Shown in pieces: positions 324-53,822 of a DNA stretch of 60,787 nt. Position 1 is the first letter of the stretch. Each line of letters begins with the position of its first letter. The DNA comes from Candidatus Poseidoniales archaeon. GTDB taxonomy: Archaea > Thermoplasmatota > Poseidoniia > Poseidoniales > Poseidoniaceae. Position numbers and translations under genes: made by a program. The notes beneath the pieces are model-generated. The model was not told the DNA's origin. It saw only the letters and a program-made list of their open reading frames with translations, and made no database searches. The DNA lies in the NCBI GenBank assembly GCA_012959275.1, contig DUDM01000058.1, positions 367 through 61,153 of the forward strand, given 5' to 3'.

Positions 324-3086
324 TTAATCTTTTCTTCTGAAAAAAGCCATAGCACTAAGAGCGCAAATTGCTGTCAAGAATGAGAACCCAGGAACAAAAC
401 TCCCAGAACCAGCATTCGATGGGTCTGGAGTTGCACCCAATTCAACCGCAAAACTAGCTTGGAAGTTATCCTTTCCATCATCCCAAACTAACTGTATGGG
501 GATAGTATCAGTCATATCCTCTGAGACCTTGACCAATGCTCCAACCTTAACTGAAGTAGCACTCTCGCTATGGACTCCCAATGGAGTCGTTATCGTGACA
601 TTGACTGAATCTCCATCTGGGTCTGAACAAACCGCTACGATGTAATACTCACCAACTGGTATTGGAACTATTCCTGCAGTTCCACTAACCGATGAAATTG
701 CCGCTTCACCAGCAATTATCATTCCTTTAGACTTGATAGAGAAATAGATATCACAAGTAGGTGCTTGGTTAACTGGGCAGCCATCTGTTTGAGTACCAGC
801 CTTATTTGGACAGGCATCTGCTGAATCAACGACTCCATCTGAATCTGAATCTCTCTGATTATCTGAACATCCGTCGGTATCAATTACTTCTCCAGAAACA
901 GTTGCAGGGCATGAGTCGAGATTATTGCTAATTCCATCATTGTCAGTGTCAAGTTGAGATGATGCGCATCCATCTGCATCAACACTCTCGCCAGCAGGGG
1001 TTCCGGTACACAGGTCAAGTGAGTCGAGCACCCCATCGCCATCAGGGTCGAGTTGTTGAGCCGAACAACCATCTGCATCGACGCTATCATCAACATCGGT
1101 TCCAGAACAAAGGTCCACATTATTCATCACACCATCTTCATCATCATCCAATTGGTCCTCTGCACAACCATCAGTATCCACGATTGCACCTTGAACAGTA
1201 TTGGGACACATATCATCGATATCCGTTATTCCATCACCATCACTATCCAACACTGAGGAAGGACAGCCATCTGAGTCAACCGTCGCTCCCGTAGGAGTCT
1301 CTGGACACTGATCATCTGCATCGTTAACTCCATCATCATCTGAATCAAGTTGAGAAGGTGAACATCCATTGGAGTCTGCAACTTCATTTCCAGGTGTATT
1401 TGCACACAAGTCGTCTTGATTGTCCACACCATCATTATCTGAATCAAGCAGTTGCTGCTGCGAACAGCCATCAGAATCGACAGTTGCTCCAGTGACAGTT
1501 CCGGGACAAAGGTCAACATCGTTGCTCACACCATCACTATCATCATCCAATTGTGAACCTGAGCAACCATCTGCATCCACTGTTTCTCCCGCAAGTGTGC
1601 CAGGACACAGGTCCTCAAGATTTGAGATACCGTCGCCATCATCATCGAGTTGATTGTCTGAGCAACCAACTGCATCAACTGTTGAGCCTTGAACAGTATC
1701 TGGACACAAGTCAACATCATTCATCACTCCGTCCGAATCATCATCCTTCTGAGACTCGGCACAACCGTTCACATCAACGGTCTCGCCAGCAGCTGTGTTA
1801 GCGCACCAATCATCTAGGTCCGGCACCCCATCTCCATCAATATCAGGGAGTTCTATCGTGAAACACGATTGATTAGTAGCCTGAACATAATCGGTTCCGA
1901 CATAGAGTGTGGCATCAACGCAATATGTGCCTTCATCGAGATTTGTGAAGGGTAATTCCCTGCTGTAACTGTTCGATATCGCCATCCAACCGAAATCATC
2001 CGAATCTATCTCTTGTCCATTTGGATCAGTCAAGTTCCATGCTACAGTATACCATTCATCCACATCTTGTTCAGCAAAGGATAAGTTGGCCCATGCAAGG
2101 CCATCTCCAGGTGAACCAATCTCGGTGGTCATGTTCATGGTGGAGTTGTCATCGATTCCCAGTATCATTACCCTGAACGATTGGTTCTCCGAGTCGGTCT
2201 GCACCCCAGCATGGCTGAGATTGGCCCAGAGCGTGAAGTTGCCAGCACCAGTGGGTCCCCAATCCCAAGTTCCGCTGCTTCCATTGGTTCCGTTGGACCC
2301 GTTGGCTTGGGTGAAGATGTTGACCCAGCTGTTGGTTCTGCAATTGTTGGCGGTCCAGTTGTCGTGACTGCTGCTGTTGACTTGTGCGCCGGTGTCATCG
2401 TTGACCAATTCCCATGTTGTAGTGTGCATTGCAGAATAATACCGGAATCCACAGGATTCAATCTCAAACGTTTTAGTATCACCAAGAACGACATCTCCAC
2501 TGTGTTGGCTGTAGTCGTTGATGTAGACAGACCCATAATGACCATAGGTGAAGGAATCGCTGGCATCATCTAGGTCATAACCTGAGGTGCGCAGTTCTGC
2601 GACGATGTAGAATCCATACCGACTACTGTAGTAGGAGGTGTTGTAGGATGGTTCGAACTGTACACTTGTCGAGTGGCTTGAGACACCAGAAGGAACGGTG
2701 ATGTTTCCTCCGATGTACGTGTAGTCATAGGACTGATTGACCTGATTCCAAGTCTCCTCACGGAGTTGTCTATAGTTGCAGTCGCTGAAATACATCACAC
2801 CTGAGTTACTTCTGTAACAGACCTTCCACTCGATGTCATAAGAGACTGTAGAACTCAGGCCGCTCAAGGTTATCGAAGCATTGGCAGATGTATTCCACTC
2901 ATATGAATCAGAACCGATTGTGACATTGATAGTTTCATTTCCAGTTCGCCCACTGGTTGAAAGTGATTCTTCGGCATCGGGCAACGCCTGAGGCATTGAG
3001 GCGGCGATACTCGAAAACAGCATCAAGATAATGAGAACTAATGCGGTCGGCTGGCTGGAATCTTTCTGTTGAAAAAGATAACTCAT
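324..3086 (-). CDS. Cell-surface protein with thrombospondin type-3-like Ca-binding repeats and a PGF-CTERM sorting tail
   Basis: Signal peptide; about 11 repeats of DxDxDGVxxxxDxCxxTxxGxxVDxxGC; C-terminus VPGF + hydrophobic helix + RRK. Confidence 0.85.
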   Translation of the reverse strand: MSYLFQQKDSSQPTALVLIILMLFSSIAASMPQALPDAEESLSTSGRTGNETINVTIGSDSYEWNTSANASITLSGLSSTVSYDIEWKVCYRSNSGVMYFSDCNYRQLREETWNQVNQSYDYTYIGGNITVPSGVSSHSTSVQFEPSYNTSYYSSRYGFYIVAELRTSGYDLDDASDSFTYGHYGSVYINDYSQHSGDVVLGDTKTFEIESCGFRYYSAMHTTTWELVNDDTGAQVNSSSHDNWTANNCRTNSWVNIFTQANGSNGTNGSSGTWDWGPTGAGNFTLWANLSHAGVQTDSENQSFRVMILGIDDNSTMNMTTEIGSPGDGLAWANLSFAEQDVDEWYTVAWNLTDPNGQEIDSDDFGWMAISNSYSRELPFTNLDEGTYCVDATLYVGTDYVQATNQSCFTIELPDIDGDGVPDLDDWCANTAAGETVDVNGCAESQKDDDSDGVMNDVDLCPDTVQGSTVDAVGCSDNQLDDDGDGISNLEDLCPGTLAGETVDADGCSGSQLDDDSDGVSNDVDLCPGTVTGATVDSDGCSQQQLLDSDNDGVDNQDDLCANTPGNEVADSNGCSPSQLDSDDDGVNDADDQCPETPTGATVDSDGCPSSVLDSDGDGITDIDDMCPNTVQGAIVDTDGCAEDQLDDDEDGVMNNVDLCSGTDVDDSVDADGCSAQQLDPDGDGVLDSLDLCTGTPAGESVDADGCASSQLDTDNDGISNNLDSCPATVSGEVIDTDGCSDNQRDSDSDGVVDSADACPNKAGTQTDGCPVNQAPTCDIYFSIKSKGMIIAGEAAISSVSGTAGIVPIPVGEYYIVAVCSDPDGDSVNVTITTPLGVHSESATSVKVGALVKVSEDMTDTIPIQLVWDDGKDNFQASFAVELGATPDPSNAGSGSFVPGFSFLTAICALSAMAFFRRKD

Positions 3087-3160
3087 AATATTGGTTCATA
3101 CTGTGAGTATTTGAGTATTTCTCAGGACTTATAAAATACAGTTACCAAGGAACACCACTC

Positions 3161-3787
3161 ATGCCCGGCATCCACCCCGACCCAACTACTACCTTCCACC
3201 AAATTCAGGTGCAACCAGAAAAAAGTAGTACAGGAAAAATCCTCTTGTTGATTGGAGTAGCAGTATTCGTGCTCGGAATTGTGCTTGGAATCTCAGGCTT
3301 CACCTCGGTTGAAGACGACCCCGAAGTTTGGGTATCTGAAGTTCAATCTGACATCGACGATGCCATCATCTGGCAAGGCACTGGTGAAATTAATGAAAGC
3401 ATTTCTCTTGACCCAGAAAAGAGCTATGGTGTGGCCATAAGTCAAGATTCTGAAATTTTTAATATCTCAATTTCCGAGGCAAATTTAAGCGTTTTTAGAG
3501 CCGAGGAATGTGAAGATTCCAACCCAGATGATACTGTTGAAGATTGTAAGGATTATGCACACTATAGTATAGGTCAAATTGAAAATGCAAGTAATGTAAA
3601 GTTGTTTTTCAATTCTACCGGAGAAGTTGTCATCGTCGATAACCTTGTTTTCTTCAAGGGTCTTGAGTCCACCGTCTGGGAACTTGCTGGTAGCGGTTTA
3701 TTGCTTGCCTTTGTTGGTGGCGGATGTAGCCTATGCCTCGGGGTGACTTTGTTGGCAGTCGGTGCTTTCATCAATTTCAAAGATTAA
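3161..3787 (+). CDS. Hypothetical membrane protein (N- and C-terminal TM helices, acidic external domain)
   Basis: 208-aa ORF; canonical TTTATAAA box about 33 nt upstream. Confidence 0.7.
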   Translation: MPGIHPDPTTTFHQIQVQPEKSSTGKILLLIGVAVFVLGIVLGISGFTSVEDDPEVWVSEVQSDIDDAIIWQGTGEINESISLDPEKSYGVAISQDSEIFNISISEANLSVFRAEECEDSNPDDTVEDCKDYAHYSIGQIENASNVKLFFNSTGEVVIVDNLVFFKGLESTVWELAGSGLLLAFVGGGCSLCLGVTLLAVGAFINFKD

Positions 3788-15024: not shown

Positions 15025-18000
15025 ATGATGGAGATGGACGCCTCGCGTATATCCTCCTTCAAGGAATTACTCGCTCAACGTATCCTAATCATCGATGGTG
15101 CAATGGGCACCATGCTACAACGCTATGACCTTGAGGAAGAGGATTTCAGAAACGATTCCCTCAAGGAGCATCAAATTGACCTTAAAGGAAATAACGATTT
15201 GCTTGTTCTAACAAAACCTGAAGTTGTCAAGGAAGTACATCTTCAATATTTTGAAGCAGGGGCAGATATTGTCGAGACCAATACATTCGGCGCCACAAGT
15301 ATTGCTCAATCTGAATACGGACTTTCCCACTTGGCCTATGAAATGAACTTCACTGCGGCTAAGATTGCACGAGAGGCTGCGGAGGAATGTTCTGAAAATA
15401 GTGGTAGGTCTTGTTTCGTTGCTGGTGCAATTGGCCCAACCAATATCACACTTTCAGCATCTGCTGATGTAGATGATGCTTCATCACGAGCCTCTACTTG
15501 GGACGAGGTCTATGCAGCCTATGTTGAACAGGTAAAAGGCCTGATTGACGGGGGTTCCGACATTATCTTGATAGAAACAATATTCGATGTTTTGAATTCA
15601 AAGGCAGCAATAAAAGCGACTCTCGATGTCTTTGAAGAACTTGAAATTGAATTACCGATTATTATCTCGGTTACTTTCATTCAAGAAGGAGGAGACCGAA
15701 CCGTATTTGGACAAAGTGTCGAAGCCTTCTGGGAGACTATTAGACATGCAAAACCAATCTGTGTTGGATTGAATTGTGGACTCGGCGCATCTGGGTTGCG
15801 AGGTAAACTACAGACTCTCTCTCGAATTGCTGATACAAATATCCACATTTATCCAAATGCTGGCTTACCCAATCCCCTTTCCCCTTCAGGCTTTGATGAG
15901 ACTCCCGAAATCACCGCTGCTCACATCCAACATTTGGCAAAGGACGGATTGTTGAACTTAGTAGGGGGATGCTGTGGAACAACCCCCACACACATCAAAG
16001 CAATTGCACAGGCAATGAAGGGAATCGCGCCCCGTGAAATCCCTACTCATGAACGCCTTCCGAGTTATGCAGGACTCGATACTTTTGTCGTTAGAAAAGA
16101 CTCCAATATGGTGATGATCGGAGAGCGAACCAATGTCACCGGTTCGGCTCTATTCAGGAGATTGATTACCTCAAATGACTTGGAAGCAGCCGTTGAAGTT
16201 GCAACAGACCAAATAAAAAATGGTGCGAATATACTCGATGTCAACATGGATGAAGGCCTAATTGACAGCGAGTTGATGATGACTAAGTTCCTCAATATTA
16301 TCGCTACAGAACCAGATATCTGCTGTGTTCCAGTGATGATTGACTCCTCCAAGTGGAGCGTTATCGAAGCCGGCTTGAAATGTGTTCAAGGAAAACCAAT
16401 TGTAAATTCCATTTCACTAAAGGAAGGAGAAAAGGAGTTTCTCCGCCAAGCCAAGGAAATCCGCCGCTATGGGGCGGCTGTTGTCGTCATGGGTTTTGAT
16501 GAAGAAGGGCAGGCAGATACAATTGAAAGAAAAGTAAGTATTGCAAAAAGAGCACATCAGTTGCTTATCGATGAAGCCGGATTCGACCCAACAGATATCA
16601 TTCATGATCCAAATATCTTAGCAATCGCAACTGGGATGGAAGAGCATAATGAATATGCCATCAACTTCATTGAAGCCACTTCTTCGATAAGAGAACAGTG
16701 TCCAGGTGCAATGGTTAGTGGAGGAGTTAGCAACCTGTCATTCTCGTTCAGAGGAAATGATCAAGTTAGGGCTGCAATTCATGCTGTATTTCTCAAACAT
16801 GCTATCGATGCTGGGTTATCGATGGCAATTATCAACCCTGCTCACCTAACCATTTTGGAAAATGTGGACCCTGAACTTCAGCAATTGGCAATTGATGTGG
16901 TATTGAATAAACGCGATGATGCAACGGATAGATTGGTTGCTTCTGCGAATAAATATTCAGGAAAGCAAGAAAAGAAAGAAGAAACTCAGCAATGGAGGAC
17001 ACTACCTGTTGAGGAAAGATTGTCGTATTCATTGGTAAATGGAATCTCAGAATTCGTAGAAGCCGATGCAGCAGAAGTTTTGGCAATATTGCAAGAGCCT
17101 CTGCAAGTTATTGAGGGGCCATTGATGGCTGGAATGGCCGTGGTTGGTGAATTATTCGGTTCGGGACAGATGTTCTTACCGCAAGTTGTGAAGAGTGCTA
17201 GGGTCATGAAAAGAGCCGTCGCTTATCTTGAACCATTCATGCAAAAAGAAGGTGATGTGCACAAAGGCAGAGGTCAAGTTGTTATGGCTACTGTCAAGGG
17301 AGATGTTCATGACATTGGCAAGAACATCGTAGGTATTGTTCTCCAATGCAATGATTATGTTGTCCACGACCTTGGTGTCATGGTTTCATGTGAAGAAATA
17401 CTGGCAAAGGCAGATGAAGTTGGGGCCGATTTCATTGGCCTTTCAGGCCTAATCACTCCATCTCTTGATGAGATGATGAGAGTGGCAGCAGAAATGCAAC
17501 GCAGAGATATGAAAACTCCACTACTCATTGGTGGTGCAACCACCTCAAGGCAGCATACAGCGGTCAGAATATCTCCAAAATATCAGCATGAAGTAGTGCA
17601 TGTCAAGGATGCATCTTTGGTATCTGGGATTCTTTCAAATCTCTTAGATGATGTCAGAAGGATTGAATTCAACGCTAAATTAGAAAAAGAAGAAGCACGA
17701 TTAACTGCACTTCACCAAAAGAAAATGTCTAACCCATTACTCAGCCTTGACAAAGCAAAGGCAAGGGCTCCAAGCCTAGTTTTTGATGATTCAACGATGC
17801 CAACCCCCGATAAACTAGGATTAGTAGTTGAAGAAATTAGTTTAGAAGAAGCATCAACATACATCGACTGGACTTTCTTCTTCACTGCCTGGCAGATAAA
17901 AGGAAAATATCCGGCAATTCTAGAGGATGTCGAAAAGGGTGAAGTGGCTCGAGAATTATTCGAAGATGGACAGGAAATGTTGGATAATATAATCGCTGAT

Positions 18001-18690
18001 AAATTGATGCAAATTAAGGCCATCAGAGGATTTTGGCCGGCATATTCAGATGGTGATGATATTCATGTCCAATCGACGACAGGGGACTCTAAACTTGGGA
18101 CATTTGTCATGCTGCGTCAACAGAGGGACCACTCAAAATCCTCAAATTATTCACTCTCAGATTTTATTTGCCCAGATGGAGATCATATTGGCGCCTTCGC
18201 GGTTTCGGTACATGGTGCTGAAGAAATGTGCAAGCAGTTTGAAGCAGAAAAAGATGACTATTCTTCGATAATGGCAAAAGCCATTGCTGATAGGTTGGCA
18301 GAAGCAAGTGCAGAATTATTACATTCAAGGGCCAGAAAATCTTGGGGATTCGGAGATAGTAATGATACCGATTTACAGACTCTATTGAAAGAGGATTATC
18401 GCTCAATAAGACCGGCTTTCGGCTATCCAGCCTGCCCTGACCATAGCGAGAAGAGATTATTGTTTGACTTGCTTGAAGCAGAAAACCATGGGTTTATTCT
18501 AACCGATTCATTTGCTACTTACCCTGCTGCTTCAGTATCTGGGATATATTTGGCACATCCTGAGGCTCATTATTTTGCTATTAATCGGGTTGATGAAACA
18601 CAAGTAATGGATATTGCTAGAAGAAAAGGAACTTCAAGACGTGATGCCGAGTATTGGTTAGCTTCGATTATTGATTATGATCCAGATTGA
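15025..18690 (+). CDS. metH: Cobalamin-dependent methionine synthase, full four-module form
   Basis: [30 protein letters not shown] (B12 motif), [12 protein letters not shown] (activation domain). Confidence 0.97.
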
Positions 18691-18698
18691 AAACCTGT

Positions 18699-18743
18699 CG
18701 CGTGCGCGGCTGTATTGCTTTTTGATGTTCAGCGCACGCTAAG
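18699..18743. repeat. 45-bp hairpin element, copy 1 (convergent metH/antiporter gap), followed by T-rich tract
   Basis: 35/45 identical to 53626-53670; stem GCGTGCG/CGCACGC. Confidence 0.85.
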
Positions 18744-18782
18744 GTTGACGTTTTCGTTGCTTTTTTGCTTTTAGTGAAAACC

Positions 18783-20480
18783 TCAACCCTCACTCGCTTG
18801 TGGCAACGGAACTTCGCCCATCAAGCCACTTTCCTCAAGAAGAATAATTAAGTCAGTGTCCAATTTCCATCTCAAATCATGACTGGTATGCTCAGAAATT
18901 AGACCTTGTCGTTCTGCATCATCAACTGCTCTTTGGCGAATCGCCAAAAGTCGCGCATCTAGTCTTCCTTGCAATCTCTCTTTGAATGATTTATCTTCAT
19001 TTAACTCCTGAAGTAATTCCTTGGATTCGGAGATTTGTTTCTTCTCTTTCTTGATTGCCTCAAGCAACTGTTCTTCAGGAGCAATGCCCATCTTATGCAT
19101 CCTCTCTAATTCAATCAATGCAGCCCCACTAGACATCAGAGTAGCAATTGCAATCTCGAATTTTTCACTATTACCATCAGATTCCTTGCCTAATCCCAAC
19201 TTATTCATCAGCGGAGTGATGGTCATTCCTTGCACAATTAGAGTGAAGATGACAACTCCCGATGCCATCAGCAACATATCATCATAGACGCCAGACGGTA
19301 GATTGGCCGCTACATCTGCATTAGGATGAAGGATCCATTGGTCAAGCAAAATTAGCATCAGTGCCAAAGGAATACTACCTCTTAGGCCACCCCAGAAAAT
19401 GACATGTCTCCAAGGCTTGGGGATGTCTGAATCAGGACTCCAGCGGGTAACCAATTCGCACATTGGATAAACTGCCAGTCTTGCTACCGTCGCAGCAAAG
19501 ATTCCAATGATGACCATGAAGAAGGCATTGGATGAAGGTGAAAGCCTATTCATCATTTCAAAGCCGATTAAGAGGAATAGCACGCTATTCATCAAGAAAG
19601 CAACCATCTCCCAAAAGTGGTCCAAGCCAACTCTTGCCTGAGGAGTCATCGCTTTCAACTTACCAATATTTCCAACCATCATTCCTGCCACAACTACTGC
19701 AATTACTCCGCTTCCATGGTAAGTTTCAGCCATTAGGAAAGAGCCAAATGCAACTGCTACTGTTATGGTGACTTCCAGTAAATGGTTGCGCGTCCATACT
19801 AATGCTTGATTAGCAGCAAAGCCAAATATTGCGCCGATAATTGAACCTATAATGACCATTTGAAGGAACATTAGACTTCCTTCAACCAAGATTCCTTGGA
19901 TACCTGTTGAGGCCCCAGATAAATCTGCAACAACTAATGCTGCCATTACCTGAAAAAGGACGACGCCTGTACCATCATTGTAGAGCGACTCACTCTCGAC
20001 AATGGTACTCAACTGGTGGGGTGCACCACATTCCTTGAATAATGCAAGAACACTCACTGGGTCAGTAGGTGCTAGGACCGCCCCTAACAATAATGCAAAT
20101 AGCAACATTTCTTGACGGGCATCCCAAACTAACCACCAAATGATTAGGCCAATGACAAACATTGATAGTAGCACAACTGGAACTGCTAAGAGAGTAGTCA
20201 ACCGCCAATTTTGTTTGAAAGAAGAAAATGATAACTTACTCGCTCCATCAAATAACAGTGGTGGTAATATCAGGTAAAGGATGACTGAAGCCGATAGGAT
20301 TCCAGATAATTCAATTTGAAAGAGGTTGTCAAATCTCGACATTAAACCAAGTATCAAACCCGCAATCACTAATGCAATGGTGTAGGGCATTTTGAAGCGG
20401 CGAATTACCAATGCTACCATTATTGCTAAAGTTAAGGCACCAAGAATAGGGGCAAGGGCCGAAGGTGGAACTGCGCTCAT
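18783..20480 (-). CDS. CPA1-family Na+/H+ antiporter (NhaP/NhaG-like)
   Basis: LPPLLF, PTDPVSV, ESLYNDG and GGLRG motifs; about 12 TM helices. Confidence 0.93.
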   Translation of the reverse strand: MSAVPPSALAPILGALTLAIMVALVIRRFKMPYTIALVIAGLILGLMSRFDNLFQIELSGILSASVILYLILPPLLFDGASKLSFSSFKQNWRLTTLLAVPVVLLSMFVIGLIIWWLVWDARQEMLLFALLLGAVLAPTDPVSVLALFKECGAPHQLSTIVESESLYNDGTGVVLFQVMAALVVADLSGASTGIQGILVEGSLMFLQMVIIGSIIGAIFGFAANQALVWTRNHLLEVTITVAVAFGSFLMAETYHGSGVIAVVVAGMMVGNIGKLKAMTPQARVGLDHFWEMVAFLMNSVLFLLIGFEMMNRLSPSSNAFFMVIIGIFAATVARLAVYPMCELVTRWSPDSDIPKPWRHVIFWGGLRGSIPLALMLILLDQWILHPNADVAANLPSGVYDDMLLMASGVVIFTLIVQGMTITPLMNKLGLGKESDGNSEKFEIAIATLMSSGAALIELERMHKMGIAPEEQLLEAIKKEKKQISESKELLQELNEDKSFKERLQGRLDARLLAIRQRAVDDAERQGLISEHTSHDLRWKLDTDLIILLEESGLMGEVPLPQASEG

Positions 20481-20541
20481 AGCCCTTGAGACAACGATAT
20501 ACCACTTATGCATTGACCCTTCAGCGAGGATGCGGATGGGT

Positions 20542-53376: not shown

Positions 53377-53449
53377 GCCTGTGTTGCATAGCTGGTAGTG
53401 CGGCGGATTTGTAATCCGCAGGCCGGGGGTTCGAGTCCCCCCGCAGGCT
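53377..53449 (+). tRNA. tRNA-Thr(UGU), no intron, CCA not encoded
   Basis: Acceptor GCCTGTG/CGCAGGC; anticodon arm GCGGA-TTTGTAA-TCCGC; T-arm GGGGG-TTCGAGT-CCCCC. Confidence 0.96.
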
Positions 53450-53714
53450 CTTTGATTATTGGTGATATTAGCAAGCATGCTAAGTATCGCATTGCACACA
53501 ATGCTCAACCCCCGCAGGCTCTTTGATTATTGGTGATATTAGAAGCATGCTAAGTATCGCATTGTGTACAATGCTCAACCCCTGCAGGCTCTTTGATTAT
53601 GGATGATATTAGCAAGTCTGCTAAGCGCGTGTGCGTCTGCATTGACAAATAATGTTCAGCACACGCTAAGTATCGCATTGCGTACAATGCTCAACCCCTG
53701 CAGGCTCTTTGATT
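53438..53714 (+). repeat. tRNA-linked tandem array, about 71-bp unit, 3 full copies plus a partial fourth; each unit starts with the tRNA 3' end
   Basis: GCAGGCTCTTTGATT recurs at 53443, 53514, 53584 and 53700 (spacings 71, 70, 71+45). Confidence 0.95.
53626..53670. repeat. 45-bp hairpin element, copy 2, inserted in array unit 3
   Basis: Interrupts GCTAAG|TATCGC; homologous to 18699-18743. Confidence 0.88.
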
Positions 53715-53822
53715 TCTGAAGAATTGGGTATTGTGTGTTGTCCTCGCCCCCTAAGGGGGCGTGGCTTTGGATGCCTACATTGATAGGGGTTCGGTGACCC
53801 CCGTAAAGTCAGAGGCTTGCCC

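Follow-up and report, generated by a model that had tools for sequence, protein, structure and literature searches.

What is the 45-nt hairpin that stands at positions 18699-18743 of an archaeal contig and again at positions 53626-53670, and how did it come to lie there? The question arises from a preliminary description of a 60,787-nt stretch of a Candidatus Poseidoniales genome (contig DUDM01000058.1; hereafter the window), in which the two stretches were interpreted as a mobile hairpin resembling REP or MITE sequences or as a family of small structured RNAs. Marine Group II archaea are, to our knowledge, an abundant uncultured lineage of the ocean whose mobile DNA is little known. Here we report that the hairpin (hereafter E) belongs to a dispersed family that is tied to the 3' ends of tRNA genes and is flanked by copies of those ends, two features that the preliminary description had missed. 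The genome holding the window (G000) comprises 1.92 Mb in 68 contigs and is 77% complete.

The ungapped match of the two stretches at 35 of 45 positions was reproduced, and the differences (positions 7, 11, 15, 20-24, 26 and 36) are the ones previously listed. Positions 7 and 36 form a compensatory change from C:G to T:A within the outer stem, and positions 15 and 26 convert T:G to C:G and T:A in the proposed inner stem. All differences had been said to preserve a series of three stems; this is well supported for the outer stem, which has 8 bp (arms GCGTGNNC/GNNCACGC) and not 7, whereas the inner 3-bp and 5-bp stems are weak across the family. The intergenic position of both copies was borne out by the gene positions and a tRNA search around each. 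Two matches to the core pattern GCGTG-NN-C-N20-TTCAG-NN-CACGC were counted in the window, against none in any of 100 dinucleotide shuffles.

Copy 1 (18699-18743, plus strand; covariance model 76.9 bits, pattern match) is a solo form consisting of a C, the 40-nt core (18700-18739) and TAAG. It begins 9 nt past the stop of the MetH gene (15025-18690) and precedes a convergent Na+/H+ exchanger gene (18783-20513, minus strand). In the minimum free energy (MFE) fold, copy 1 is predicted to form an extended hairpin (18692-18746, plus strand) with an outer 5-bp stem (AACCU/AGGUU) that encloses the 8-bp stem, a 3x2 internal loop between the two, and an MFE of -22.8 kcal/mol (z = -1.86); its AACC...GGTT flanks were found again at other copies of E. 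The 9-nt string TGAAAACCT of the metH stop (18688-18696) is repeated 85 nt downstream, past E (18773-18781), and is too short for calling a displaced gene end.

Copy 2 (53626-53670, plus strand; covariance model 61.6 bits, pattern match) lies 176 nt past a tRNA-Thr(UGU) gene (53377-53450, plus strand; ARAGORN; Rfam RF00005, 65.3 bits) and ahead of a CARDB-domain gene. It sits as an insert of 45 nt within unit 3 of a tandem array of cassettes of about 70 nt (53438-53716, plus strand), for which this tRNA is the source of the 3'-end copies. Tandem Repeats Finder (TRF) delimited the array at 53438-53625 (period 70, 2.7 copies, 91% matches), up to its interruption by E, and the remainder was recognized by reading its continuation after E. 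Each cassette comprises the 3' end of tRNA-Thr (CCCCGCAGGCTC), a trailer, a short stretch of this end in inverted orientation, a hairpin of 16 nt (GCATTG-N4-CAATGC) and TCAA. Units 1 and 2 read uninterrupted from GCTAAG into TATC where unit 3 carries copy 2, the extra block of unit 3 coincides with the 45-nt limits of E (C, 40 nt, TAAG), and GCTAAG borders copy 2 on both sides. On the 5' side of copy 2, sequence reading revealed a short inverted (antisense) piece of the acceptor 3' strand of tRNA-Thr (53611-53621, plus strand), whose ortholog in the related genome G007, AGCCTGC, is the exact complement of GCAGGCT. On its 3' side follow the small hairpin of the host cassette (53675-53690, plus strand), a module that also stands after E on contigs C26 and C61, and a direct copy of the tRNA-Thr 3' end (53695-53707, plus strand; local alignment score 10 versus at most 8 in 20 shuffles). 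An ortholog of copy 2 was found in G007 (contig C28), in which the length of the array is unlike that in G000.

The expectation of a dispersed hairpin family was confirmed by 12 full copies of the 40-nt core (GCGTG-NN-C ... TTCAG-NN-CACGC) in G000. The covariance model built from these copies recovers all 12 and one half copy, and its weak matches in the genome adjoin three further tRNAs. The copies are palindromic and intergenic; the 12 full and few decayed ones are a lower bound, since contigs often begin or end at E cassettes and such repeats break assemblies. Three contig ends of G000 (C6:1-45, C8:1-45 and C26:1-300) fall inside or beside E cassettes. Among 60 related genomes, the model detected E in six of eight congeners versus 2 of 52 others, namely one in the remaining 28 genomes of the same family, one in the 22 genomes of family f3 and none in the two of family f2. 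Scanning of metagenome contigs with a 20-base pattern yielded 61 loci with 67 copies of E; a looser 16-base pattern on genome contigs was uninformative, the matches listed including chance matches in GC-rich bacteria. E has no counterpart in Rfam (at the gathering score tRNA alone matched, and at the E-value threshold no match overlapped E), nor was any IS-end family matched.

Selection for the stem, as previously suggested, is supported by 38 aligned copies, in which six of the eight outer-stem pairs are altered on both sides. The outer helix is 99.3% paired and its covariation score was reached by none of 500 shuffles, in an alignment fitted to the covariance model, so that structure is favoured in these pairing statistics. 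In the proposed inner stems about 81-88% of the cells are paired, and one pair is unpaired in 21 of the 38 copies. At six orthologous pairs of loci, 3 of 96 stem positions differ (a compensatory pair accounts for two of them), compared with 15 of 145 in the apical part and about 5-10% in the alignable flanks. Two unpaired motifs show sequence conservation, GGY behind the 5' strand and TGTTCA ahead of the 3' strand. Comparison by eye with consensus structures led us to reject a K-turn (the 3-nt loop is not flanked by GA pairs), C/D box and H/ACA RNAs (the spacing is too short for guide regions) and a bulge-helix-bulge motif (the bulges face each other across an 8-bp and not a 4-bp helix).

E might be a cis-acting RNA structure at the 3' ends of tRNA precursors and mRNAs that spread through its usefulness, for instance by helping termination, blocking exonucleases or signalling processing. 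Five copies lie 10-70 nt past the stop of a protein gene on the same strand and two behind a tRNA on the same strand, and compensatory change keeps the stems at orthologous loci. Of 37 copies, 19 are followed by a run of at least four T on the strand of E and 3 on the other strand, and G:U pairs, which can form on the strand of E alone, are abundant in the proposed inner stem; both fit a transcribed RNA and count against a DNA reading. The outer stem, however, has a single G:U among about 300 cells, as expected for a DNA inverted repeat, and E is antisense to the upstream gene at C8:13410 and on C17. Archaeal transcription termination requires oligo-T and not a hairpin, and the tRNA-end copies, the target duplication and the stacking described below are left unexplained by a role at RNA 3' ends, which we consider unlikely. 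A small structured RNA, the second interpretation in the preliminary description, is in general the less likely one.

Empty sites in congeners at two loci and the contrast between empty and filled units within the tRNA-Thr array document that E is insertional, and it was inserted recently. Behind metH, the block of copy 1 is absent from the two closest genomes, G007 (contig C40) and G003 (contig C5), which are 93% identical to G000 over the last 393 nt of the gene. The site reads ...AAATC ATT GTTGAC... in both and ...AAACC TGTC-E-TAAG GTTGAC... in G000, with no target duplication. At tRNA-Val, a 99-nt block is absent from the same two genomes, the flanks are conserved on both sides, and there is no cargo. 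The block consists of 76 nt (inverted tRNA-Val end, E and a short piece resembling a T-arm) and a 23-nt direct repeat made up of the last 8 nt of the tRNA and 15 nt of trailer. The target duplication is thus uneven: it is absent at copy 1 and measures 4-6 nt (TAAG or GCTAAG) at copy 2 and 23 nt at tRNA-Val. Since close relatives lack E at the same genes, it is dispensable, which again argues against a function at RNA 3' ends. The number of units varies between species at tRNA-Gln, tRNA-Thr and the C51 locus. At tRNA-Tyr, metagenome contigs hold one to five cassettes in variable order, and the E cassette either adjoins the tRNA or is displaced outward by a cassette with a different hairpin. For tRNA-Arg, the search of the two closest genomes did not yield the orthologous locus.

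Of the 12 copies in G000, six stand downstream of a tRNA gene (Gln, Arg, Lys, Pro, Val and Thr), at distances of 38-177 nt. In the metagenome, an intron-aware tRNA search placed 37 of the 67 copies within 300 nt of a tRNA, 36 of them downstream and with nine tRNA species involved, and a further 15 copies have a contig edge within 300 nt; many of these copies are orthologous, so that the counts are not independent. Intron-bearing tRNA-Trp, tRNA-Met and tRNA-Tyr are present in G000. Relative to the tRNA, E points in the same direction in 23 of the 37 cases and in the opposite direction in 14. Occurrence in either direction fits a DNA element better than a transcript signal, and a structure acting at the 3' ends of tRNA precursors would not be expected antisense to the neighbouring tRNA.

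The placement of the tRNA ends that accompany E follows the orientation of E. Where E is inverted with respect to the tRNA, an antisense copy of the tRNA end lies between the two in 15 of 17 cases; where both point in the same direction, a direct copy lies beyond E in 23 of 26. Read on the strand of E, the copy of the tRNA end is therefore on its 3' side in 38 of 43 cases, and the 5' side bears only a short inverted piece of that end. The copies are decayed, with 2-5 mismatches in about 22 nt plus indels, and an ungapped 15-nt test that was too strict for them was replaced by local alignment. By this measure, G000 has an extra copy of the tRNA's own end within 150 nt downstream at 9 of 30 tRNAs in inverted and at 5 of 30 in direct orientation, and such copies were found at none of the 20 tRNAs sampled in each of two complete relatives without E. 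The flanks had at first suggested half of a split tRNA or a tRNA whose variable arm is giant; this interpretation was dropped because they are inverted and direct copies of the end of the neighbouring tRNA.

The oriented module of E followed by a tRNA end would also be compatible with a small RNA gene in which the hairpin is fused to a mimic of the tRNA 3' end; its promoter would lie in the AT-rich loop of the hairpin upstream, and its terminator would be oligo-T. By eye, several copies are preceded at 13-20 nt by AT-rich strings resembling a TATA box, and the tRNA-end copy is followed by TTT. We attach very little probability to such a gene: the promoters are candidates read by eye, the tRNA-end copies decay, solo copies of E have no such copy, and no Rfam family corresponds to it.

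Direct repeats of the tRNA end on both sides of an insert are also what is found at attL and attR. The cassettes could then be passive att-site scars of integrase-bearing plasmids or viruses that lost their interior, and E would never move. The junction between E and the tRNA end resembles an attR junction, foreign DNA with integrase and methylase genes occurs at the same tRNA-Tyr and tRNA-Glu loci, and synteny breaks 14-17 nt past tRNA-Pro in three congeners. The filled sites themselves point the other way: the tRNA-Val insert is a clean block of 99 nt with conserved flanks and without cargo, copy 1 is a solo insert of 45-50 nt distant from any tRNA, and copy 2 is a 45-nt insert within an older cassette. 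Moreover, the elements integrated at tRNA-Tyr lie upstream of the E cassette and have no E themselves, and none of the 33 loci at which viral contigs matched the looser 16-base pattern of E is a real E according to the covariance model (best score 18.4 bits). The identical deletion would have to recur at about a dozen different tRNAs, and we regard an origin as scars as improbable.

Integrated elements were nevertheless encountered at these tRNAs. Beside tRNA-Glu(UUC) on contig C43 of G000 (1300-3200; L074/L138) lies one without a copy of E, in which the tRNA 3' end is directly followed by a 173-aa ORF and a 346-aa tyrosine integrase whose gene contains a masked or N stretch. This is the only element-type integrase of G000; it occurs in 2 of 61 genomes, a distribution that does not track E, and was rejected as the partner of E. 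A relative with 38% identity was found in G007 only. G000 also has a XerA-like recombinase of the host, on contig C18. At several metagenome loci (L293, L312/L270, L296 at about 1870-2000, and L311:1-1400), the region upstream of the E cassette contains a junction of foreign DNA with a displaced tRNA-Tyr 3' end that begins in the T-loop. In L311, the ORF of a tyrosine integrase reads through the distal copy of the tRNA-Tyr end without a stop, and DNA methylase genes lie near the foreign DNA in L307 and L312. None of the integrated elements examined at tRNA-Glu and tRNA-Tyr carries E, and no free or excised form of E was seen. Charybdis elements are reported to integrate next to the tRNAs of Poseidoniales (10.1101/2025.08.03.668216).

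We lean towards the interpretation that E is a non-autonomous DNA hairpin element moved in trans by a putative recombinase, because it occurs in either direction, is dispensable in close relatives, stacks, duplicates its target and has almost no G:U in the outer stem. E would be the hairpin core of a small insertion element without genes that takes two forms: solo, of about 45-50 nt (copy 1), and as a cassette of about 100-125 nt located immediately after a tRNA gene. Along the strand of E, the cassette begins with a short antisense piece of the tRNA end, continues with E and closes with a direct tRNA 3'-end copy that extends from the T-arm or T-stem through the acceptor end; such cassettes stack in tandem behind the tRNA. 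We infer that the element acts as folded DNA. The antisense piece may pair with the direct copy and thereby recreate the tRNA end in double-stranded form at the foot of the hairpin; since this pairing is possible, the folded strand would carry a duplex tRNA end capped by E. By analogy with attC and the CTXphi attP(+), a site-specific recombinase supplied in trans could use this duplex as its recombination site. The likeliest enzyme would be a tyrosine integrase of the elements that integrate at the same tRNAs, and the conserved unpaired GGY and TGTTCA beside the stem are candidate protein contacts. How the antisense arm is matched to each different tRNA is left unexplained by this model. Also counting against it are the uneven target duplication, the negative outcome of the enzyme searches in G000 and beside the metagenome copies, and the fact that E was never seen in free or excised form. 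Reverse transcription, fold-back priming and Cas1-type integration were considered as conceivable sources of the inverted copy and the long duplication.

More tentatively, the E cassettes may form a class of hairpin elements, so far undescribed, that are programmed by tRNA ends. In this view, the guide would be the arm on the 5' side of the hairpin, a short sequence complementary to the first target bases; the fold would display the duplex tRNA end, and an altered arm would send the element to another tRNA or gene end. We consider this extension rather doubtful.

Several known systems resemble a mobile hairpin of this kind. Like the REP sequences of RAYT systems and the PATEs of the IS200/IS605 group, E is a short non-coding intergenic hairpin repeat with compensatory stem changes, and at least one of its insertions (copy 1) lacks a target duplication. 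The suggested relationship to REP/RAYT was nevertheless not upheld, as no Y1 HUH transposase (PF01797) was found in the 77%-complete G000, whereas control genomes matched, and the count of E, a lower bound, is about a dozen copies rather than hundreds. A search for TnpB-like proteins in G000 gave only a match below the threshold. Unlike PATEs, E has no fixed target tetranucleotide, the sequences 5' of E varying from site to site, and its tRNA-end copies and the 23-nt duplication have no counterpart in either group. The comparison with MITEs was partly justified: E has terminal inverted repeats (the 8-bp stem arms) but no target-site duplication of fixed length, and in the cassette form the inverted and the direct tRNA-end copies make up the outer arms. 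No parent IS whose ends match was found among the 94 ORFs beside the 67 metagenome copies, which include one integrase and no transposase, or in the Y1_Tnp and TnpB searches. By these tests, E is neither a REP/RAYT or PATE sequence nor a classical MITE.

The duplications left by integrases at att sites are closer, in that a direct repeat of the 3' part of the tRNA also flanks E inserts (23 nt at Val; copies at Arg and Thr), but the E inserts measure 45-125 nt and contain neither an ORF nor a recombinase gene. In tycheposon islands, stacked remnants and partial tRNA duplications (attL/attR) reportedly derive from elements with tyrosine integrases (10.1101/2020.12.28.424599). Att sites of the tycheposon or Charybdis type share with E the insertion at the tRNA 3' end, the outward displacement of older by newer inserts and the variation among close relatives; E differs from them by its inverted tRNA-end copy, by its conserved covarying hairpin and by landing also away from tRNAs. 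The nearest item in the literature that we searched is a palindrome about 10 bp after tRNA genes of Methanopyrus kandleri, which is not accompanied by tRNA-end copies (PMC5217627). A printed description of tRNA-end hairpin cassettes was not found in this literature.

For the proposed folded site, the closest parallels would be two imperfect palindromes. In the attC sites of integrons and in the forked hairpin of the CTXphi attP(+), a folded single strand rebuilds a duplex recombination site; attC sites are recognized by their R''/R' core boxes (RYYYAAC/GTTRRRY), extrahelical bases and the IntI integrase. E may be likened to both by its palindrome, the conserved unpaired bases beside the stem and the tandem stacking at a fixed site. 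The analogy is incomplete, since the arms of E copy the adjacent tRNA and have no universal core, the cassettes lack an ORF, and dependence on IntI or Xer is a property of the two known sites; the top of the E stem is often GAAC/GTTC, which is only a loose resemblance.

Transfer RNA genes are classic landing sites for viruses, plasmids and islands, and the actors known to us at such sites all carry a recombinase. E would represent a gene-less element of 45-125 nt that exploits the same sites, duplicates the tRNA end in both orientations, accumulates in stacks and also moves to other gene ends. New features are the orientation rule, the solo form, the clean empty sites in congeners and the presence of E inside an older cassette. 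If the folded-site idea is true, it would extend the principle of folded single-strand recombination known from integrons and CTX to archaeal tRNA genes, and would also account for the assembly breaks beside tRNAs in these genomes. The covariance model together with the tRNA-end rule provides a route to the annotation of E units, and the same tools help to spot displaced tRNA ends where gene finders wrongly call giant tRNA introns.

Two such predictions were made by ARAGORN, a tRNA-Pro with a 377-nt 'intron' (G000 C61:16324-16792) and a tRNA-Tyr with an 810-nt 'intron' (metagenome locus L310). These are probably not real introns; the program seems to have paired the 5' part of a tRNA with a displaced copy of its 3' end. 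A second conserved hairpin (CAGAGTTTCAT, an AT-rich loop and ATGAAACTCTG) follows the E unit at tRNA-Pro(UGG) and tRNA-Leu(UAG) (G000 C42:82010-82060 and C3:790-830), and at tRNA-Leu(UAG) it is followed by a 12-nt direct copy of the tRNA end. In other cassettes, the same slot is occupied by other hairpin cores (GCATTG-N4-CAATGC plus TCAAC; GAGAGG...CCTCTC). Behind tRNA-Met (G000 C21:24800-24890), an inverted copy of the tRNA end is followed by TA without a hairpin, and behind tRNA-Pro GGG (G000 C68:6850-6915) the inverted copy is fused directly to the inner half of a decayed E; both units look like deletion derivatives of cassettes.
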